Below are positions 13,983 to 21,341 of a DNA stretch of 39,249 nt, piece after piece. Under the pieces are notes generated by a model that ran no database searches, was not told the DNA's origin, and saw only the letters and a program-made list of their open reading frames with translations. The position numbers and the translations under genes are program-made. The stretch lies in IMG/VR virus record IMGVR_UViG_2861079508_000003, positions 1-39,249 of that record; one strand, 5' to 3'. Within the stretch, counting starts at the first letter, position 1. Every line of letters starts with the position of its first letter. The stretch is from a virus (lineage: Duplodnaviria; Heunggongvirae; Uroviricota; Caudoviricetes).

Positions 13983-14697
13983 GTTAATAAATGGCAATGC
14001 CATCAAAATGACAAGCATTGAAATCGCTGAGTTGGTTGGTAAGCGTCATGACAATGTGAAACGTACCATCGAAACGCTGGCTAAAAATGGTGTTATCCGG
14101 CTTCCTCAAATTGAGGATTGTGGAAGAATCAATGGGTTAGGCTTAAATCAAAGTTTTTGTGTGTATGTGTTCGAAGGCGAACAAGGTAAGCGAGATAGTA
14201 TTGTTGTTGTTGCCCAGTTGTCGCCAGAGTTCACCGCTCGTCTTGTTGACCGTTGGCGAGAGCTTGAAGAAACTGCGGTTAATATCCCCAAAACGTTACC
14301 GGAAGCGTTGCGCCTTGCTGCTGATCTTGCTGAGCAGAAAATGCAACTGGAAAACCAGCTCGCAATTGCCGCACCTAAAGTTGAGTTTGCCGATCGAGTT
14401 GGCGAGGCCAGCGGAATTTTGATTGGAAACTATGCAAAGGTTGTTGGAATTGGTCCAAACAAACTGTTTGCGTGGATGCGCGATCACAAAATCCTTATTG
14501 CTTCAGGTTCCCGGCGCAATGTGCCAATGCAGGAATATATGGATCGCGGCTATTTCACAGTGAAAGAAACAGCGGTCAACACAAATCACGGAATACAGAT
14601 ATCGTTCACCACAAAAATCACCGGGCGTGGTCAACAGTGGCTGACCAGAAAGCTGCTCGATAACGGAATGCTGAAAGTAACAGGGGAGGCTGCTTAA
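13975..14697 (+). CDS. Rha-family / KilA-C-type phage regulatory protein (putative antirepressor; 240 aa)
   Basis: N-terminus ([35 protein letters not shown]..) fits the Rha pattern; C-terminal half resembles KilA-C antirepressor domains. Family from memory. Confidence 0.6.
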   Translation: MNELINGNAIKMTSIEIAELVGKRHDNVKRTIETLAKNGVIRLPQIEDCGRINGLGLNQSFCVYVFEGEQGKRDSIVVVAQLSPEFTARLVDRWRELEETAVNIPKTLPEALRLAADLAEQKMQLENQLAIAAPKVEFADRVGEASGILIGNYAKVVGIGPNKLFAWMRDHKILIASGSRRNVPMQEYMDRGYFTVKETAVNTNHGIQISFTTKITGRGQQWLTRKLLDNGMLKVTGEAA

Positions 14698-14987
14698 TGG
14701 CTAACCTACGCAAAGAAGCGCGCGGAAGAGAATGCCAGGTACGTATTTACGGCGTATGCAATGGCAATCCTGAAACCACAGTTCTGGCACATTACCGGAT
14801 GGCTGGAATTTGCGGAACGGGAATGAAGCCTGACGACCTGATCGGCGCATGGGCTTGTAGCGCGTGTCACGATGAAATCGACCGACGCACCCATAACCTC
14901 GACAACAAAGACGCCAGACTTTACCACCTCGAAGGCGTAATCAGGACGCAGGCGATACTGCTGAAGGAGGGGAAGATTAAGCCATGA
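14697..14987 (+). CDS. Zinc-binding nin-region protein (DUF1364-like; 96 aa)
   Basis: Four-cysteine arrangement (CQVRIYGVC..., CSACHDE) and position between the Rha-like gene and rusA. Confidence 0.5.
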   Translation: MANLRKEARGRECQVRIYGVCNGNPETTVLAHYRMAGICGTGMKPDDLIGAWACSACHDEIDRRTHNLDNKDARLYHLEGVIRTQAILLKEGKIKP

Positions 14988-15346: not shown

Positions 15347-15531
15347 ACGCCACAATTCAAACGATACCAGAGCTTCTTATCCAGACACGAGGCAATCAGA
15401 CCGAAGTGGCAAGGATGCTTTCCTGCGCAAGAGGAACAGTGCTCAAGTACAACCGAGACAGCAAAGGCGAGCGTCACGTAATAGTTAACGGCGTCCTGAT
15501 GGTCAAACAGGGCAAGAGGGGAAGACGATGA
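15343..15531 (+). CDS. ninH: NinH protein (62 aa)
   Basis: ..GNQTEVARMLSCARGTVLKYNRD..VIVNGVLMV.. parallels lambda NinH (..GNQTEVARRLKCSRGTVRKYVDD..AIVNDVLMV..). Confidence 0.7.
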   Translation: MNATIQTIPELLIQTRGNQTEVARMLSCARGTVLKYNRDSKGERHVIVNGVLMVKQGKRGRR

Positions 15532-16046
15532 GCATAAGAGAACTAAACCTCACCAAAGAACAGCACGATTGGCTGAATGGCTGGCTTGAACTGTGGGGAG
15601 CATGGGTTTATTCAGGTCGTCTGGAAAAGCGCATGAGCAGCGTAATAGCTAAGTTCATGGAGAGCGTAGAGCCGGGAAGAGTTATGACAAGGCCAATGTG
15701 TAATGATGATGATGGAATGTTGATTTCTCAGGTCGTCGATTCCGTCATGTACATTGACAAGAAAGCCTTTGGCATCCTCCTCAGCTACTACGCTCATGGT
15801 TCATCTAAGCGAGCAATTGCATCCTACTATCACGCGACTGCAAAGCCACGCAAGATGTGTGGACGTGGTGGCGAGGGATGGAGAAAACCTTCACTGGCAA
15901 CCTGTAGAAACGAAATTGACGACATCCTGAAAGCGTCATTATTTGTTTTATACCAGCCAATGCAAAATGCTTTCAAAATGCGTAAACGTGTTGAGAAAGT
16001 TAAGCATGTTGCCGTTAAAAGCCTTGACATGCAATTAGCCATTTAG
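15528..16046 (+). CDS. Q: Late-gene antitermination protein Q (non-lambda Q family; 172 aa)
   Basis: Last gene before the late promoter and lysis genes; resembles antiterminator Q proteins of the phage-82 type from memory; a promoter and close terminator follow. Confidence 0.65.
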   Translation: MSIRELNLTKEQHDWLNGWLELWGAWVYSGRLEKRMSSVIAKFMESVEPGRVMTRPMCNDDDGMLISQVVDSVMYIDKKAFGILLSYYAHGSSKRAIASYYHATAKPRKMCGRGGEGWRKPSLATCRNEIDDILKASLFVLYQPMQNAFKMRKRVEKVKHVAVKSLDMQLAI

Positions 16047-16053
16047 CCATAAT
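16024..16053 (+). promoter_or_regulatory. Putative late promoter PR' (-35 TTGACA, about 18-bp spacer, -10 CATAAT)
   Basis: Consensus -35 hexamer overlapping the last codons of Q, with a good -10, as for lambdoid PR'. Confidence 0.5.
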
Positions 16054-16096
16054 ATTCACATATGCTGCTGCTTTTGCATTCAGCAACCATCACAAG

Positions 16097-16118
16097 CCCA
16101 CCTCCTGTGGGTTTTTTT
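16097..16118 (+). terminator. Putative tR' terminator downstream of PR'
   Basis: Hairpin CCCAC-CTCCT-GTGGG followed by TTTTTTT about 50 nt downstream of the predicted start. Confidence 0.55.
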
Positions 16119-16240
16119 GCATTCGCGTGCAATCAAAACAAGAGTCTTAGTGATATGGGCCTGAGATATGGTGGTGGAAACATCGCTCCGCTCTTGGCTG
16201 TCATATCTACGCGAACAGGCTCTATCCCTAAGGTAAAGCG

Positions 16241-16753
16241 ATGAAAGAAATAAAATTAACGCCAGAAATGGTGCTTTCTGTTGTTGATTACAATCCATCA
16301 TCAGGCGACTTTCACTGGAGATGGAGGCAGGGGAGAGAGAGGACCACTTTGACATGGAACTCTCGTTTTGCTTTCAAGAAATGCTCATCAATAAATTCTG
16401 ATGGGTATTTAATGATTATGATTAATGGTAAAGCATACCCTGCTCACAGACTGGCATGGTTGATTGTTTATGGCACCATGCCCGATGGTTTTATTGATCA
16501 CATCAACAGGGTAAGAACAGATAACCGGATATCAAATCTTCGTCTTGTCACTCATTCCGAAAATATGCAAAACAGGAAAATTCAGAAGAATAATAAATCT
16601 GGATACCGTGGCGTGTCTTGGGATGCTAAGTACGGGAAATGGAGAGCAAGAATTAATGCGTCTGGAAAGTGTATTAACCTTGGATACCATGACACTGCCG
16701 AACTTGCCGCTGCGGCTTTTGAGGCAGCCAGAATGAAATATCATACCGTTTAA
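16241..16753 (+). CDS. HNH homing-endonuclease-like protein with AP2-type domain (170 aa)
   Basis: ..AHRLAWLIVYGTMPDGFIDHINRVRTDNRISNLRLVTHSENMQNR.. (HNH_3) plus ..SGYRGVSWDAKYGKWRARI..GYHDTAELAAAAFEAA.. (AP2-like); inserted in the late-operon leader. Confidence 0.75.
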   Translation: MKEIKLTPEMVLSVVDYNPSSGDFHWRWRQGRERTTLTWNSRFAFKKCSSINSDGYLMIMINGKAYPAHRLAWLIVYGTMPDGFIDHINRVRTDNRISNLRLVTHSENMQNRKIQKNNKSGYRGVSWDAKYGKWRARINASGKCINLGYHDTAELAAAAFEAARMKYHTV

Positions 16754-16807
16754 AGATGTAAGCTGCCGTTAGTGACTCTTAAGTTGCAACGGTGGCTTTT
16801 TTTATTT

Positions 16808-16882
16808 GGGTCAGTCGTATAAAGGTCATTACGGAAGGCTGTTAACCTTCTTATCGTGGTTCGAGTCCACGCTGTCCCGCCA
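16808..16882 (+). tRNA. tRNA-Asn (anticodon GTT), putative
   Basis: Hand-folded cloverleaf: 7-bp acceptor stem (one U-U mismatch), D-arm with GG, anticodon loop CTGTTAA, T-arm CGTGG-TTCGAGT-CCACG, discriminator G and encoded CCA. Confidence 0.5.
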
Positions 16883-16887
16883 AATAT

Positions 16888-16963
16888 GCTGGTTTAGCTC
16901 CAATGGTAGAGCAGTCGCCTTGTAAGCGAATGGGTAGCGGTTCAAGTCCGTTAACCAGCACCA
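16888..16963 (+). tRNA. tRNA-Thr (anticodon TGT), putative
   Basis: Hand-folded cloverleaf: acceptor GCTGGTT/AACCAGC, D-stem GCTC/GAGC, anticodon loop CTTGTAA, T-arm AGCGG-TTCAAGT-CCGTT, discriminator A and encoded CCA; 76 nt. Confidence 0.6.
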
Positions 16964-17050
16964 TAACTGAGCCGTAGCCACTGGCTATCCTGAATTCATC
17001 AGTGATAGTTACGCTGCGGCCTTCTACACATGACCTTCGTGAAAGCGGGT

Positions 17051-17085
17051 GGCAAGAGGTTGCGCTAACAACCTCCTGCCGTTTT
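17051..17085 (+). other. Conserved stem-loop in the late-mRNA leader upstream of S
   Basis: 12-bp stem with one mismatch (GGCAAGAGGTTG...CAACCTCCTGCC) followed by GTTTTGCCC; region 16966-17205 matches what I recall of the lambda sequence preceding S. Confidence 0.4.
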
Positions 17086-17205
17086 GCCCGTGCATATCGG
17101 TCACGAACAAATCTGATTACTAAACACAGTAGCCTGGATTTGTTCTATCAGTAATCGACCTTATTCCTAATTAAATAGAGCAAATCCCCTTATTGGGGGT
17201 AAGAC

Positions 17206-17529
17206 ATGAAGATGCCAGAAAAACATGACCTGTTAGCCGCCATTCTCGCGGCAAAGGAACAAGGCATCGGAGCAATCCTTGCGTTTGCAATGGCGTACCT
17301 TCGCGGCAGATATAATGGCGGTGCGTTTACAAAAACAGTAATCGACGCAACGATGTGCGCCATTATCGCCTGGTTCATTCGTGACCTTCTCGACTTCGCC
17401 GGACTAAGTAGCAATCTCGCTTATATAACGAGCGTGTTCATCGGCTACATCGGTACTGACTCGATTGGTTCGCTTATCAAACGCTTCGCTGCTAAAAAAG
17501 CCGGAGTAGAAGATGGTGGAAATCAATAA
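17206..17529 (+). CDS. S: Holin, lambda S type (107 aa, dual-start Met1/Met3)
   Basis: [62 protein letters not shown].. is essentially identical to recalled lambda S. Confidence 0.95.
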
Positions 17530-17989
17530 TCAACGTAAGGCGTTCCTCGATATGCTGGCGTGGTCAGAGGGAACAGATAACGGACGACAGAAAACCAGAA
17601 ATCATGGTTATGACGTCATTGTAGGCGGAGAGCTATTTACTGATTACTCCGATCACCCTCGCAAACTTGTCACGCTAAACCCAAAACTCAAATCAACAGC
17701 AGCCGGGCGCTACCAGCTTCTTTCCCGTTGGTGGGATTCCTATCGTAAGCAGCTTGGCCTGAAAGACTTCTCTCCGAAAAGCCAGGATGCTGTGGCATTG
17801 CAGCAGATTAAGGAGCGTGGCGCTTTACCGATGATTGATCGCGGTGATATTCGTCAGGCTATCGACCGTTGCAGCAATATCTGGGCTTCACTGCCGGGTG
17901 CTGGTTATGGTCAGTTCGAGCATAAGGCTGACAGCCTGATTGCAAAATTCAAAGAAGCGGGCGGAACGGTCAGAGAGATTGAGGTATGA
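17513..17989 (+). CDS. R: Endolysin, lambda R type (lytic transglycosylase; 158 aa)
   Basis: [75 protein letters not shown].. matches recalled lambda R. Confidence 0.95.
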
Positions 17990-18423
17990 GCAGAGTAACC
18001 GCGATTATCTCCGCTCTGGTTATCTGCATCATCGTCTGCCTGTCATGGGCTGTTAATCATTACCGAGATAACGCCATCGCCTACAAAGAGCAGCGCGATA
18101 AAGCCACAACCATCATCGCTGACATGCAGAAGCGTCAACGTGATGTAGCAGAACTAGACGCCAGATACACAAAGGAGCTTGCTGATGCTAACGCGACTAT
18201 CGAAAGTCTCCGTGCTGATGTTTCTGCTGGGCGTAAGCGCCTGCAAGTCGCCGCCACCTGTGCAAAGTCAACGACCGGAGCCAGCAGCATGGGCGATGGA
18301 GAAAGTCCAAGACTTACAGCAGATGCTGAACTCAATTATTACCGTCTCCGAAGTGGAATCGACAGGATAACCGCGCAGGTTAACTACCTGCAGGAATACA
18401 TAAGGACGCAATGCCTTCGATGA
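17986..18423 (+). CDS. Rz: Spanin inner-membrane subunit Rz (145 aa)
   Basis: N-terminus [31 protein letters not shown].. matches lambda Rz; coiled-coil remainder; follows R. Confidence 0.85.
18185..18370 (+). CDS. Rz1: Spanin outer-membrane lipoprotein subunit Rz1 (embedded in Rz, +1 frame; 61 aa from ATG)
   Basis: Embedded ORF with lipobox (..LLGVSAC..), Pro-rich segment and AAGGAG RBS 7 nt upstream of the ATG; classic Rz/Rz1 arrangement. Confidence 0.75.
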
Positions 18424-18563
18424 TAGCGATAATTTTACTCATCATCCTTCACATCTGGCTCTGTAGACAGGGTGGTGATCACTTCTGGAGTGAATCCAGA
18501 TTAAACATCTCATTGCTGATGCTTGAAGTTGAGCATCTGGCGCGCGGTAAGGGGCTGCGTTGA
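18420..18563 (+). CDS. Possible small hydrophobic protein (47 aa), not in ORF track
   Basis: ATG overlaps the Rz stop (ATGA); N-terminus [15 protein letters not shown].. is hydrophobic. Only coupling and hydrophobicity support it. Confidence 0.25.
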
Positions 18564-18928
18564 GATAAGAGCCAGTTCATTACAAAGCCTATCTACGGGT
18601 GGGCTTGATAATGAAACCGTGATTTACATCCCCACAATCCGGGTATGTAAAAGATAGTTCAGGCGAGAACAGATTTAACTAAATCTGTGCACCACCAGTT
18701 ACGGCAGTACCGCGAAACAACCCAAGCCAGTAAGTGGGGAAATAACACTGGCAGCCACTGAAAGATGAACCTCCTGCCTTATGGCAAAAAAGATTCTTTG
18801 TGGTGGCGGACTGATGGAAAAACATCGGTTATTGCAGAGACCATTCAGTGAGTGGTCTCGACAATGGCTTATACCCTACACGGGATAACTTAACTGATAT
18901 CCCTTTTAACGGATAAACGGAGCCAACA

Positions 18929-19171
18929 ATGGCAGAGATTATTCCCATGACTGAAGAACAGAAATTCCAGTTAGAGATTTACAAACTGGTCATGAACCAG
19001 AACGCAGCCGCAGAAGAAGCATTTCAATTCATTGGCACTGACGAACTGAAGCTTGAGCTATTCAAAATTCACTTCCAGTCAGGCGGCGCTAATTCAGATA
19101 TCACGATCCGCACATTTGAAGCGGTGCGTAAATCGAAGGAAGCGTTAGACCTGTTCACCACCGGAGCATGA
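18929..19171 (+). CDS. Hypothetical protein (80 aa)
   Basis: ORF with RBS (ACGGAG) between lysis and packaging genes, in late-operon orientation. Confidence 0.45.
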   Translation: MAEIIPMTEEQKFQLEIYKLVMNQNAAAEEAFQFIGTDELKLELFKIHFQSGGANSDITIRTFEAVRKSKEALDLFTTGA

Positions 19172-19172
19172 T

Positions 19173-19352
19173 GTGAGCCGCGTAATCAATTTGGGTAAGG
19201 AGAAGAAATTCCCAATTACTCAAGAGCTATACGAGCGGCTTGAAAGCGTTATTCATGATTACGATGGTGAAATCAGTTTGTGTGAGGCGATTGGCACACT
19301 CGAATTGCTGAAGCAGTCACTGATTGAAAGCGCGAAAGAGTCATCAGCCTGA
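19173..19352 (+). CDS. Hypothetical protein (59 aa, GTG start), not in ORF track
   Basis: Manual translation VSRVINLGKEKKFPITQELYERLESVIHDYDGEISLCEAIGTLELLKQSLIESAKESSA; starts 2 nt after the preceding stop. Confidence 0.3.
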   Translation: MSRVINLGKEKKFPITQELYERLESVIHDYDGEISLCEAIGTLELLKQSLIESAKESSA

Positions 19353-19369
19353 AATAACAAATAAGTGAG

Positions 19370-19864
19370 ATGAATATGGCGGCACCAAAGGGCAACCGAT
19401 TTTGGGAGGCCCGCAGTAGTCATGGGCGAAACCCGAAATTCGAATCGCCTGAGGCGCTGTGGGCTGCTTGTTGTGAATACTTCGAGTGGGTAGAAGCTAA
19501 CCCGCTATGGGAGATGAAGGCGTTCTCGTATCAGGGTGAAGTGATACAAGAGCCTATCGCCAAGATGCGAGCGATGACTATTACCGGACTCACTCTGTTC
19601 ATTGATGTGACGCTTGAAACATGGCGCACATATCGCCTGCGAGAAGATTTATCTGAAGTCGTTACGCGAGCAGAGCAGGTCATCTACGACCAGAAATTCT
19701 CTGGCGCAGCCGCTGACCTTCTCAACGCTAACATCATCGCCCGTGATTTGGGCCTCAAAGAGCAGTCGCAAGTTGAAGACGTGACACCTGATAAGGGAGA
19801 TCGCGATAAGCGGCGCTCTCGTATCAAGGAGCTATTCAACCGTGGAACTGGACGCGATTCTTGA
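19370..19864 (+). CDS. Terminase small subunit (P22 gp3 position; 164 aa)
   Basis: Immediately precedes and overlaps the large terminase gene; size and synteny as for P22 gene 3. Family assignment by position and size. Confidence 0.65.
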
Positions 19865-21341
19865 TAACCTGAGCGACGAAGAGCAAATCGAGTTGCTCGA
19901 GCTACTCGAAGAAGAAGAGAACTACCGGAACACACACCTGCTATATGAATTTACGCCATACAGCAAACAGCGTGAGTTCATCGACGCCGGGCATGACTAT
20001 CCAGAACGCTGTTTTATGGCTGGTAACCAGCTTGGTAAGTCATTTACCGGTGCTGCCGAAGTCGCGTTTCACCTTACAGGGCGTTATCCGGGCACAAAAG
20101 GCTATCCTGCTGATGGTAAATATGGCGGTGAGTGGAAAGGTAAGCGTTTCTATGAGCCTGTTGTCTTCTGGATTGGCGGCGAGACAAACGAGACGGTAAC
20201 CAAAACGACTCAACGCATCCTGTGCGGTCGTATCGAAGAGAATGACGAGCCAGGCTACGGTTCCATACCGAAAGAAGACATCATTAGCTGGAAGAAGTCT
20301 CCTTTCTTTCCGAACCTTGTTGATCATCTTCTGGTTAAGCATCACACGGCTGATGGCGTTGAAGATGGCATTTCAATCTGCTACTTCAAACCATACTCGC
20401 AAGGCCGCGCTCGCTGGCAGGGTGACACAATCCACGGCGTGTGGTTTGACGAAGAGCCACCATACAGCATTTATGGTGAAGGCCTTACCCGTACCAACAA
20501 ATACGGGCAATTCTCAATTCTGACGTTTACCCCGCTGATGGGGATGTCTGACGTTGTTACCAAGTTCCTGAAGAATCCCAGCAAGTCGCAGAAAGTCGTC
20601 AACATGACCATCTATGACGCCGAGCACTACACAGACGAGCAGAAAGAGCAAATCATCGCATCCTATCCTGAGCATGAGAGAGAGGCGCGTGCTCGCGGTA
20701 TTCCTACGATGGGTAGCGGGCGAATCTTCCAGATACCGGAAGAGACGATTAAGTGTCAGCCGTTCGAGTGTCCTGATCACTTCTACGTAATTGGCGGGAT
20801 GGATTTCGGATGGGATCACCCGCAGGCGCAGGTTCAGCTTTGGTGGGATAAGGACGCAGACACAATCTACGTTTCACGCGTGTGGAAGGCGAAAGAAAAA
20901 ACAGCCGTTCAGGCATGGGGAGCTGTTAAATCATGGGCGCATAAAGTGCCAACAGCATGGCCTCATGACGGAAACCAGCATGAGAAGGGCGGCGGTGAGC
21001 AGCTCAAAGGGCAGTATGCAGACGCTGGTTTTATGATGTTGCAGGAGCATGCGACATGGCCTGATGGCGGTAATGCCGTGGAGCCTGGCATCACTGAATT
21101 GCGCGACATGATGCTCGATGGTCGCTTCAAAGTATTCAACACCTGTGAGCCATTCTTTGAGGAGTTCCGCCTCTATCACCGTGATGAAAACGGGAAGATC
21201 GTCAAGCTTAACGACGACGTGCTATCAGCCGTTCGCTATGCATACATGATGCGCCGCTTCGCCAAAATGATGCGCGACATCAAAAAACCAAAAGAGAAAA
21301 AGATACCAGCCCCAATCAGGCCCATCGCACGGAGAACTTAA
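19842..21341 (+). CDS. Terminase large subunit (P22 gp2 type; 499 aa)
   Basis: Same length as P22 gp2; contains an ATPase-like segment (..[14 protein letters not shown]..) and a nuclease domain; followed by portal. Confidence 0.85.

Follow-up and report, generated by a model that had tools for sequence, protein, structure and literature searches.

The window analysed in the present study is the whole 39,249-nucleotide stretch of the IMG/VR virus record IMGVR_UViG_2861079508_000003 (Caudoviricetes). The region described here contains a late antiterminator gene with its promoter, an HNH block, two tRNA genes, and a lysis cassette with its leader:

15528 to 16046, plus strand: late antiterminator Q of the phage 21/Sf6 type (PF06530, E 1.3e-25)
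16024 to 16066, plus strand: late promoter pR' (TTGACA at 16024-16029, CATAAT at 16048-16053; 11/12 positions in a promoter scan)
16054 to 16757, plus strand: HNH block of 704 bp, seen as an alignment gap against Sf6 and CUS-3
16241 to 16753, plus strand: homing-endonuclease-like ORF of 170 aa (Pfam HNH_3, E 2e-18; AP2, E 1.6e-8)
16758 to 16807, plus strand: phage-21-type pause element (TAAGCT, 16759-16764) and tR' hairpin with T run, now apart from the promoter
16808 to 16882, plus strand: tRNA-Asn(GTT) (ARAGORN; Rfam tRNA)
16888 to 16963, plus strand: tRNA-Thr(TGT) (ARAGORN; Rfam tRNA)
16965 to 17034, plus strand: conserved leader block 1, a putative left recombination linker, shared in alignment by phage 21, lambda, Sf6, CUS-3, and HK629 whatever their 5' neighbour
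17035 to 17205, plus strand: conserved leader block 2, with folds at 17045-17091 (stem-loop), ~17105-17145 (second hairpin), and ~17184-17200 (sdi hairpin)
17206 to 17529, plus strand: lambda-type holin/antiholin S (PF05106, E 2.4e-30, 105 bits)
17513 to 17989, plus strand: endolysin R, a lambda-type lytic transglycosylase (PDB 1AM7; Glu19 present)
17986 to 18423, plus strand: i-spanin Rz, a chimera (PF03245; identity profile, alignment, and informative sites)
18064 to 18077, no strand: crossover interval from lambda-type to P22-type sequence (last lambda-specific site 18063, first P22-specific site 18078)
18185 to 18370, plus strand: o-spanin Rz1 of the P22/HK97 family, embedded in Rz (PF06085, E 1.4e-19)

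The description of Q as a non-lambda type in the first-pass annotation was correct. The PF06530 protein resembles those of Sf6 and phage 21 and had no match to lambda Q; nucleotide identity was 98.7% to Sf6 gene 59 and 84% to the Q region of phage 21. Positions in pR' were read against those annotated for phage 21 in record OL657228 (-35, QBE, -10, TSS, and SDPE), which has the same layout. Direct repeats ATTAGCCA/TTTAGCCA (16034-16049) lie at the position of the phage 21 Q-binding element, where phage 21 has ATTGAGCA/AATGAGCA. A -10-like TATGCT (16061-16066) lies at the position of the sigma-dependent pause element. By homology with phage 21, these elements presumably have the corresponding functions. 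The PF06530 Q protein, the repeats between -35 and -10, the pause element at +2 to +7, and a terminator within ~60 nt together match the layout of the Q21 family. We classify Q and pR' by this layout as a Q21-family late antitermination unit, in which Q binding and antitermination are predicted.

The HNH block is inserted just 3' of the pR' -10 element, between this element and the pause element, and the original pause element and tR' now stand downstream of it as a second copy that has no promoter. It holds its own initial transcribed region and an intrinsic terminator (16094-16114, followed by a T run; terminator scan and fold), and its pause-like element and terminator duplicate those left downstream. 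The block is absent from the same site in Sf6, CUS-3, and BTP1, and a truncated remnant is present in PhiR12 phages. Other homologues are less than 45% identical and are scattered in virulent phages. The coliphage HK629 (Lambdavirus, NC_019711) shares Q-pR'-HNH at 99.4% identity over 15990-16808 and has lambda-type S and R. However, HK629, a siphovirus, lacks the tRNAs and carries bor as well as lambda-type Rz/Rz1. The presence of the block in this otherwise different genome shows that it moves independently. The two copies differ at only one site in 704 bp, against a divergence of ~1-4% over ~1.2 kb on the upstream side and 2.4% in S-R. Therefore, we regard the block as an independent insertion that is much younger than its flanks and that, judging from this near-identity, recently moved between HK629 and the present Lederbergvirus. 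Its gene has the features expected of a free-standing homing endonuclease, namely, an HNH domain with a DNA-binding domain, sporadic presence, and an age below that of its flanks, and we class it as a candidate member of this group.

Downstream of the block, the tR' region folds with a dG of -20.2 (z -3.8) and corresponds to the stretch named bsq4 in CUS-3. The Rfam tRNA scores of the two tRNAs were 55.3 and 61.5 bits. This pair is also among the annotated features of phage 21, Sf6, BTP1, and SPN9CC. It belongs to a phage-21-type late-leader module: identity to phage 21 was 99.25% over 16759-17025, an interval that takes in the pause element and terminator, the two tRNAs, and the next 62 bp. 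The homology to phage 21 stops at 17025, and the phage 21 sequence runs on into an unrelated cassette of pinholin S21 and a SAR endolysin.

The lambda-type homology starts 2 bp past the 3' end of tRNA-Thr. Using NC_001416 44945-46427 as the lambda reference for S-R-Rz-Rz1, 16965-18063 of the window (~240 bp of leader, S, R, and the first ~80 nt of Rz) was 97.4% identical to lambda 44945-46043. The first-pass annotation had called S, R, and ~240 bp of leader nearly identical to lambda. This held for the proteins, with 106/107 residues of S (99.1%) and 155/158 residues of R (98.1%) identical, and for the leader, the last 150 bp of which are 100% identical. The 5' part of the leader is less lambda-like. 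Over 16965-17025, a single site separates the window from phage 21, against 5 for lambda, and this stretch is nearer to phage 21, CUS-3, and HK629 than to lambda. At sites at which lambda and P22 differ, 17035-17515 carries the lambda state at 73 and the P22 state at 3.

S begins with MKMPEK and thus has the Met1-Lys2-Met3 dual-start motif (S107/S105). Directly 5' of S is the hairpin AUCCCCUUAUUGGGGGU, identical in lambda, which we take to be sdi from the established biology of lambda S. In lambda, the sdi hairpin sets the ratio of S107 to S105 starts. The protein family, near-identity, dual start, and hairpin place S with the class I holin/antiholin of lambda; its identity to P22 gp13 was 88.9%. 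A Pfam search of R returned no match at E up to 0.001, and the family was settled by a sequence search of PDB, in which R aligned with the solved lambda lysozyme 1AM7 over residues 1-158 (E 7e-105). Residue 19 of the R translation is Glu, the catalytic Glu19 of lambda lysozyme, and R is accordingly classed as a lambda R lytic transglycosylase. The differences from lambda R are mostly synonymous (17 nucleotide changes, 3 amino acid changes). In contrast, R was only 17.8% identical to the P22 endolysin gp19, which is a non-homologous enzyme.

The claim that Rz and Rz1 are also nearly identical to lambda was not upheld. In Rz, the lambda type is limited to the first ~80 nt. The first 78 nt, which encode the membrane anchor, are of this type, whereas the part encoding the periplasmic domain is P22-type. 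Amino acid identity was 58.4% to lambda and 89.7% to P22 for Rz, and 36.5% to lambda and 95.1% to P22 for Rz1. Among the informative sites, those in 17986-18063 carry the lambda state at 19 and the P22 state at 0, and those in 18089-18414 carry them at 5 and 122 (Fisher p 1.3e-19). Since the lambda-type sites end at 18063 and the P22-type sites begin at 18078, the right-hand junction is placed inside Rz and not at 18423. The crossover interval falls where the two types are more than 90% alike, and lambda has a 21-nt indel just beyond it. Rz1 lies in the +1 frame of Rz and has a lipobox Cys20 (LGVSAC) and a proline-rich region (KSPPPV). The o-spanin families described in PMC6139136 place P22, Sf6, CUS-3, and HK97 apart from lambda. 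We assign Rz/Rz1 of the window to the embedded two-component spanins of the P22/HK97 type. At this crossover, the periplasmic domain of the i-spanin stays with its cognate o-spanin. The spanin pair travels as a unit, apart from the holin and endolysin. For annotation, S and R may be named from lambda with full confidence, and Rz/Rz1 should be named from P22.

The arrangement has several known relatives. The Shigella phage Sf6 (NC_005344 / AF547987; Casjens et al. 2004, J Mol Biol 339:379) has the start of its late operon in the same order: 21-type Q, pR'/qut/tR', tRNA-Asn, tRNA-Thr, a 240-bp leader, lambda-like S/R, chimeric Rz, and P22-type Rz1. Its identity was 96.9% over 16758-18826 and 98.7% over Q; however, it has 6 bp between the pR' -10 and pause elements in place of the 704-bp HNH block. 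CUS-3 (CP000711), the K1 prophage of RS218, was 97.5% identical over 16967-18586 and has the same S, R, chimeric Rz, and Rz1, but lacks the tRNAs and the HNH block and has an unrelated stretch of ~300 bp between tR' and the leader. Its record labels the 240-bp leader bsq3 and the pR'/tR' stretch bsq4. Lambda shares the leader, S with its dual start and sdi hairpin, transglycosylase R, and the first ~80 nt of Rz. It differs in its own Q, qut, and orf-64 region upstream, in the lack of tRNAs, and in its lambda-type distal Rz and Rz1.

In P22 (genes 13-19-15-Rz1, NC_002371 38075-39425), distal Rz and Rz1 were 94-98% identical, and the leader from 17035 and holin 13 were homologous (83% nucleotide, 89% amino acid). 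Orf80, orf59c, gene 3, and the 5' two-thirds of gene 2 in the flanks were ~95% identical. P22 differs in having gene 23 as Q, no tRNAs, rha downstream of Rz, and the non-homologous endolysin. The description of the flanking packaging and morphogenesis genes as P22-type was borne out by synteny and homology; most morphogenesis genes beyond ~20750 were only 65-80% identical to P22. Of the lambda-type cassette on a P22-type backbone that had been proposed, the module junction and the lambda type of the leader, S, and R stood, and the lambda type of distal Rz and Rz1 did not.

The edges of the modules recur. The left edge at ~16965 agrees to within 3 bp with that in lambda, CUS-3, and HK629, all without tRNAs there. 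A second edge at 17035 was found in P22, HK022, HK140, mEpX2, Sf101, and ST104. In BTP1 and SPN9CC, a leader matching 16758-17201 (97.1%) is followed by an unrelated holin of 67 aa; ST104 has this holin behind the 17035-17201 part (94.7%). Thus, the edges 16965, 17025-17035, 17201, and 18064-18077 recur across lambda, 21, P22, HK022, CUS-3, BTP1, SPN9CC, and ST104. They coincide with boundary sequences annotated in GenBank, namely, bsq3 and bsq4 of CUS-3 and bsq7 of Sf6. Leader blocks 1 and 2 together are bsq3 in the CUS-3 feature table, and bsq7 maps to 18055-18102 of the window, which contains the crossover interval. In the boundary sequence model (Clark et al. 2001; Casjens et al. 2004), as summarised in PMC3233612, mosaic junctions are short conserved stretches with unrelated flanks and recurrent edges, and the region fits this description. 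The evidence on boundary sequences comes from the CUS-3 and Sf6 feature tables and from this summary of the model.

We consider it highly probable that the region is the late-operon start of a P22-like (Lederbergvirus) temperate coliphage, assembled from at least five interchangeable lambdoid modules and inherited within its clade, rather than recently received from lambda. The modules would be the Sf6/21-type Q with pR', the mobile HNH block, the phage-21-type tR'/tRNA-Asn/tRNA-Thr leader, the pan-lambdoid structured S leader with lambda-type S/R, and the P22-type Rz periplasmic domain with embedded Rz1. They would be joined at short sequences (16965-17034, 17035-17205, and the Rz membrane-anchor coding sequence at ~18021-18088), and homologous recombination between co-resident lambdoid phages or prophages may reassort the flanks at these conserved linkers. 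As predicted from the Q21-type annotations of OL657228, Q would load on RNA polymerase at pR' and read through the terminators. The late transcript would then yield S105/S107, with start choice through the sdi hairpin, transglycosylase R, and the Rz-Rz1 spanin, which would disrupt the outer membrane as the final lysis step. The dual start of S, the transglycosylase activity of R, and the functions of spanins are established. The arrangement would have come down vertically in a clade of P22-like phages of E. coli and Shigella. This descent is deduced from relatives, because the closest E. coli prophages, among complete genomes, were 96-97% identical over only 86% of a 12-kb stretch and none was identical. 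The closest record in the phage collection covered 50%, and none was identical. The mosaic is real, but it is ordinary lambdoid mosaicism that is already annotated in Sf6 and CUS-3. The region offers a textbook example of how lambdoid phages evolve by modules, and its main use is in correct annotation and in the true module limits of 16965, 17035, 17201, and 18064-18077. A divergence of ~2% is too little to order or date the exchanges.

The joins could also have formed without targeting to linkers. In the alternative model summarised in PMC3233612, illegitimate recombination occurs at random sites and selection leaves only products at gene boundaries, and such a process could account for the present junctions.

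The first-pass annotation suggested that the tRNA and HNH insertions mark or promote the recombination boundaries. Promotion could proceed through double-strand breaks made by the endonuclease or through recombination at the tRNA genes. Both tRNAs and the HNH ORF do lie just upstream of 16965, the lambda-type homology begins immediately after tRNA-Thr, and the HNH block is sharply bounded and was very recently shared with HK629. Moreover, free-standing homing endonucleases co-convert flanking DNA (PMC2790892). However, the left edge is shared by lambda, CUS-3, and HK629, which lack the tRNAs; the junctions at 17035 and 18064-18077 have neither a tRNA nor an HNH gene nearby; and the S-R/Rz chimera is also present in Sf6, which lacks the HNH gene. 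The divergence from HK629 in S-R and upstream of the block indicates that any co-conversion tract was short and did not reach S-R. Since the same junction positions recur in phages without either element, the tRNAs and HNH gene are not needed for the junctions; they mark the hypervariable gap between Q and S. We regard an origin of the S-R junctions from these elements as improbable.

A recent donation of the leader and S-R-Rz/Rz1 by lambda or a very close Lambdavirus to a P22-type backbone is less probable still, and we consider it very unlikely. The near-identity of S, R, and the last 150 bp of the leader to lambda is consistent with such a graft, as is the lower similarity of most morphogenesis genes to P22. 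However, in the alignment, the lysis genes were no closer to lambda than to other lambdoid phages. Identity over 16965-18063 was 98.2% for CurroJimenez_Bas106, 97.9% for HF4s, 97.8% for Dewey, CUS-3, and Huey, and 97.7% for HK446 and IME10, and lambda at 97.4% ranked below ~20 non-lambda records, the closest of which are P22-like coliphages. At least 80% of this interval is covered by 99 phage records. In all, ~300 phage records and ~1,500 E. coli prophages gave matches. The whole of 16966-18423 was 96.9-97.5% identical in CUS-3, HF4s, HK75, Sf6, and others, with 61 phage records covering at least 80%. The identical chimera is present in Sf6, CUS-3, HK75, HK022, and others, and neither the P22-type distal Rz and Rz1 nor the 5' end of the leader, which fits phage 21, CUS-3, and HK629 better, is expected from lambda. 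About 20 non-lambda records match S-R as well as or better than lambda. The cassette is an allele common in the lambdoid pool of enterobacteria, which the nearest P22-like relatives also carry, and is not evidence of a recent exchange with lambda. In this text, lambda-type is the name of a widely shared allele and not of a donor.

Strong purifying selection on the lysis genes, in place of horizontal exchange, has almost no probability as the source of the likeness to lambda. S, R, and the leader are functionally constrained, and the few amino acid changes in R agree with this; however, synonymous and non-coding positions are also ~97-100% identical, the endolysin of P22 is non-homologous, the identity switches within 14 bp in a step-like profile, and the same leader precedes unrelated holins in other P22-like phages. 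An assembly artefact joining reads of two co-resident prophages is equally negligible: mosaic joins in conserved repeats are classic places of misassembly and nothing specific points to one here, but dozens of phage isolates sequenced independently carry these joins, and at least 15 complete E. coli genomes, among them E2348/69, have Q-HNH-tRNA-tRNA-S with an identity of 98.9% or higher.

Two elements of the region call for separate comment. The long stem-loop placed at 17051-17085 by the first-pass annotation is present and conserved. Its core (17051-17080) lies inside an extended helix (17045-17091) with a dG of -26 kcal/mol and a z of -3.8, and 1 of 200 shuffles folded as well; the z of the whole leader fold was -6.8. 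In an alignment of 14 phages, pair counts revealed compensatory changes (CG to UA and UA to CG, in either direction) that are confined to the helices of the stem-loop, few in number, and essentially the result of one lineage split, and covariation was absent or weak in the remaining leader fold (helices 5-7). An intrinsic terminator was defined as a GC-rich hairpin followed immediately by at least 5 U. The hairpin is strong, but its tail, GUUUUG, has only 4 U and is sequestered by the outer helix (17045-17050 with 17086-17091), and the consensus scan gave no call. An Rfam scan of 15500-19500 with E up to 1 returned only the two tRNAs and one chance snoRNA match, with no known family for the leader or stem-loop, and the stem-loop is not annotated in the lambda records NC_001416, J02459, and OM418626 or in P22. 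As a lesser possibility, this pan-lambdoid, covarying stem-loop may be a functional RNA element that tunes lysis timing, for example as a 5' stabiliser after tRNA processing or as a back-up terminator. Luk and Szybalski reportedly mapped tandem transcription-termination sites in the lambda late rightward operon, with extra late-leader terminators; we mention this as background and not as evidence.

A 50-aa ORF in the leader (17002-17154) was rejected as a gene because indels of 1 nt and 4 nt between lambda-type and P22-type leaders break a common frame.

The second element is the HNH block. It is possible, but rather doubtful, that it is an active free-standing homing element that targets the initial transcribed region of Sf6/21-type late promoters. 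If so, the HNH gene would be the first Q-dependent late gene and could drive localized conversion of the gap between Q and S. Other lambdoid phages carry stx genes and tRNAs at this same hot spot. Located at +1 of a late promoter, the block is a candidate that lends itself to the study of homing endonucleases in temperate phages.

The interval 16966–18423 holds a lambdoid lysis cassette of four genes, all on the plus strand. These genes and the elements upstream of S are as follows:

15528–16046, upstream of S: late antiterminator Q (PF06530, phage 21/82 family, not lambda's)
TTGACA at 16024 and CATAAT at 16048–16053, upstream of S: strong sigma-70 promoter (promoter scan)
16241–16753, between the promoter and the tRNAs: HNH_3+AP2 open reading frame
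16808–16882, upstream of S: tRNA-Asn
16888–16963, upstream of S: tRNA-Thr
17206–17529, plus strand: S, holin/antiholin (107 aa, PF05106)
17513–17989, plus strand: R, endolysin (158 aa)
17986–18423, plus strand: Rz, i-spanin (145 aa, PF03245)
18185–18370, plus strand: Rz1, o-spanin, embedded in Rz (61 aa, PF06085)

The first-pass annotation had described a recent graft of lambda-type S, R and Rz/Rz1, with about 240 bp of leader, onto a P22-type backbone. The present analysis confirmed that observation in part and partly supported its interpretation. Q is of a non-lambda type, as had been stated, and 3' of the cassette lie DUF2560, a gp3-type small terminase, and a large terminase and portal of P22 type. 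The window represents a P22-like (Lederbergvirus) coliphage or prophage; in the phage collection, it stands closest to the E. coli phages Dewey, HZ41, CurroJimenez_Bas106, IME10, CUS-3, and HF4s, which are ~97% identical across 40–50% of the first 25 kb. No identical genome was found in the phage collection or among complete E. coli genomes.

BLAST and MAFFT alignments matched 16965–18234 to lambda 44945–46235. Identity to lambda was 92–100% per 50-nt window from ~16975 to 18078, and beyond 18078 it decreased to 40–70%. S, R, and the leader are nearly identical to lambda, as proposed (97.4% over 16965–18063; 106 of 107 residues in S and 155 of 158 in R), and R matched the solved lambda lysozyme 1AM7 with an E value of 7e-105. 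In contrast, this did not hold for the spanins; whole Rz is 58.4% identical to lambda Rz and 89.7% to P22 gp15, while Rz1 shares 36.5% identity with its lambda counterpart and 95.1% with that of P22. At informative sites, which distinguish lambda from P22, the window sided with lambda 73:3 in 17035–17515 and 19:0 in 17986–18063, and with P22 122:5 in 18089–18414 (Fisher p 1.3e-19). The proposed cassette is accordingly lambda-type as far as 18063, the final lambda-specific site, and P22-type from 18078, the earliest P22-specific site. These alignments place the right-hand junction inside Rz, at 18064–18077, in the part that codes for the N-terminal membrane anchor, a stretch in which the two phages are >90% alike. 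Kongari et al. grouped the o-spanins of P22, Sf6, CUS-3, HK97, and HK022 in a family separate from that of lambda, 21, and HK629 (PMC6139136), and the P22-type Rz1 of the window agrees with these families.

Lambda holds no special place among the relatives of this DNA. Across 16965–18063, approximately 20 records of other phages outrank it, including CurroJimenez_Bas106 (98.2%), HF4s (97.9%), Dewey, CUS-3, and Huey (97.8%), HK446 and IME10 (97.7%), and HK629 (97.6%); the lysis genes are no closer to lambda than to other lambdoid phages, which is the outcome that the first-pass annotation had named as refuting its reading. At least 80% of this stretch is covered by 99 records. At least 80% of the whole interval, including the P22-type distal part of Rz, is covered by 61, with identities of 97.3–97.5% in CUS-3, HF4s, HK75, and E212 and 96.9% in Sf6. 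Its carriers include podoviruses (Sf6, CUS-3, and IME10) and siphoviruses (HK022, HK75, and mEp phages). The P22-like Salmonella phage epsilon34 has the same S and R type (91.7% at the nucleotide level; S, 99% at the amino acid level). Since lambda is outranked and the allele is spread over podoviruses and siphoviruses, "lambda-type" denotes an allele that is widespread in the gene pool of enterobacterial lambdoid phages. Furthermore, the closest copies of the block reside in relatives of the phage itself, which speaks for inheritance inside this clade rather than the recent transfer from lambda that had been suggested.

The junctions are a well-documented kind of lambdoid mosaicism and have already been flagged in the Sf6 and CUS-3 records. 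The Sf6 feature "bsq7; boundary sequence" maps to 18055–18102 and encloses the crossover interval, and the same record carries the notes "similar to phage 21 Q", "tRNA similar to phage 21", and "similar to phage lambda S107 / R". In CUS-3, the 240-bp leader (16965–17205 in the window) is labelled "bsq3; boundary sequence", and the pR'/tR' stretch "bsq4". The epsilon34 paper (PMC2629481) described six P22-like Salmonella phages that have holins of three non-homologous types and lysins of three types; some of these phages also carry Asn/Thr tRNA genes. Clark et al. 2001 (HK620) are credited with the idea that lambdoid phages exchange DNA by homologous recombination at short, conserved boundary sequences, and the rival model is illegitimate recombination combined with selection (PMC3233612). 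From the observed modules, relatives, and breakpoints, we infer that homologous recombination at conserved linkers, while lambdoid phages and prophages co-resided, is the most plausible origin. The Rz periplasmic domain and Rz1 would have to interact; the crossover lies inside the conserved membrane-anchor segment, and, therefore, that domain and the embedded Rz1 would have stayed together as a P22-type pair.

The leader is not a piece of lambda accompanying S. Over 16759–17025, the window and phage 21 share 99.25% identity; in phage 21, this stretch comprises the annotated sigma-dependent pause element and tR', the two tRNAs, and 62 bp past tRNA-Thr. From 17026, phage 21 is unrelated and leads into its own pinholin cassette. 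The 62 bp are also present in lambda. Since 16965–17025 shows 1 difference from phage 21 and 5 from lambda, we assign the tRNAs to a phage-21-type late-leader module and place the switch to lambda-type sequence near 17025–17035. The left edge at ~16965 recurs, to within 3 bp, in lambda, CUS-3, and HK629, in which the upstream DNA is unrelated and lacks tRNAs. A second edge, 17035, is the start of homology in P22, HK022, HK140, mEpX2, Sf101, and ST104. At the third, 17201, which lies 4 nt 5' of the S start codon, BTP1, SPN9CC, and ST104 switch to an unrelated 67-aa holin. BTP1 and SPN9CC have the entire 16758–17201 block, including the tRNAs, in common with the window (97.1%). Because these three edges have varied neighbours, we regard the leader as a pan-lambdoid conserved non-coding element that acts as an independent module, with several possible neighbours on each side. 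The structured part, 17035–17201, is kept at 95–97% in the P22-like Salmonella phages BTP1, SPN9CC, and ST104 (records L009, L010, and L011).

Folding showed that the stem-loop reported in the leader is real. Its core (17051–17080) has 12 pairs and one A·C mismatch followed by GUUUUG, and is nested in a longer helix (17045–17091; dG -26 kcal/mol, z -3.8). The lambda counterpart folds in the same way but has other mismatches (dG -28.4). The entire 252-nt leader folds much better than shuffles (z -6.8), and the hairpin directly 5' of the S start is identical to the sdi structure of lambda. In a 14-phage alignment, the two stem-loop helices were paired at 100% and 91%, and compensatory CG<->UA and UA<->CG changes distinguished lambda-type from P22-type leaders. 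Covariation appears to lend modest support because these changes represent approximately one lineage split. The stem-loop was not called in a scan for the terminator consensus (4 U only), matched no Rfam family, and is not annotated in the lambda and P22 records. Our guesses are that it may serve as a weak back-up terminator, or as a stabilising or processing structure for S mRNA.

Only the HNH block at +1 of the late promoter has some residual novelty. The window contains 704 bp (16054–16757) where Sf6 and CUS-3 have 6 bp. This block starts immediately after the pR' -10 hexamer and opens with its own initial transcribed region, in which a -10-like TATGCT (16061–16066, +2 to +7) takes the place of the TAAGCT pause element of phage 21/Sf6. 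An intrinsic terminator follows (16094–16114), and the block ends 4 nt past the stop codon of the HNH_3+AP2 gene. The 21-type pause element and tR' (16759–16807) then resume as a second, promoterless copy. Since the block has its own terminator and tR' resumes 3' of it, the HNH gene is flanked by two late-leader terminators.

The same block, with one difference, is present in HK629 (Lambdavirus), and it is missing at this site in Sf6, CUS-3, BTP1, and SPN9CC. The full Q-HNH-tRNA-tRNA-S order recurs at >=98.9% identity in at least 15 complete E. coli genomes, EPEC E2348/69 among them. Other homologues of the protein are <45% identical, scattered in virulent phages, and annotated as homing endonucleases. 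This pattern fits a young, mobile, free-standing putative homing endonuclease gene. PhiR12 phages retain just the first 255 bp of the block, stopping 68 bp into the HNH reading frame, which looks like a decayed remnant of it. PhiR12_1 (record L008) 2501–2819 corresponds to 15990–16308; these phages have Q, pR', the alternative leader and terminator, the 68 bp, and then unrelated DNA. The tRNA/HNH insertions had also been suggested to mark or promote recombination boundaries. However, Sf6 has the S-R/Rz chimera without the HNH gene. HK629 diverges from the window by ~1–4% over the nearest ~1.2 kb upstream of the block and by 2.4% in the S-R block, and its near-identity to the window stops short of S-R. 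The HNH gene does not account for these junctions. Between roi and rusA in the nin region is a second small HNH-annotated reading frame (14697–14987, 96 aa); it has homologues in HK97 gp66 and CUS-3 hkbD and is unrelated to the HNH_3+AP2 gene.

Direct repeats ATTAGCCA/TTTAGCCA (16034–16049) lie between the pR' -35 and -10 elements, at the site that corresponds to the Q-binding element of phage 21 (ATTGAGCA/AATGAGCA). Since the repeat sequence differs from that of phage 21, the Sf6-type Q may have a DNA specificity distinct from Q21. We infer the regulation and lysis roles from well-studied homologues: Q would load on RNA polymerase paused just 3' of pR' and read through the terminators, and the late transcript would supply S107/S105, the transglycosylase R, and, to disrupt the outer membrane, the Rz-Rz1 spanin.

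The stretch 18424–18912, which separates Rz from the DUF2560 gene, is variable and lacks the rha gene of P22. A 50-aa reading frame (18411–18563), a homologue of Sf6 gene 65, overlaps the end of Rz, and a terminator-like hairpin lies on the minus strand at 18791–18770. Sequence similar to P22 itself (~95%) extends from 18089 through orf80, orf59c, gene 3, and the 5' two-thirds of the large terminase gene (19842–21341). From 18912 to ~20700, identity to P22 remains ~95%, and it falls to 65–80% at ~20750 (about 20700–20800), which matches the boundary of the Terminase_6N (ATPase) and Terminase_6C (nuclease) domains. This drop suggests an intragenic mosaic junction at the domain boundary, of a kind typical of these phages.
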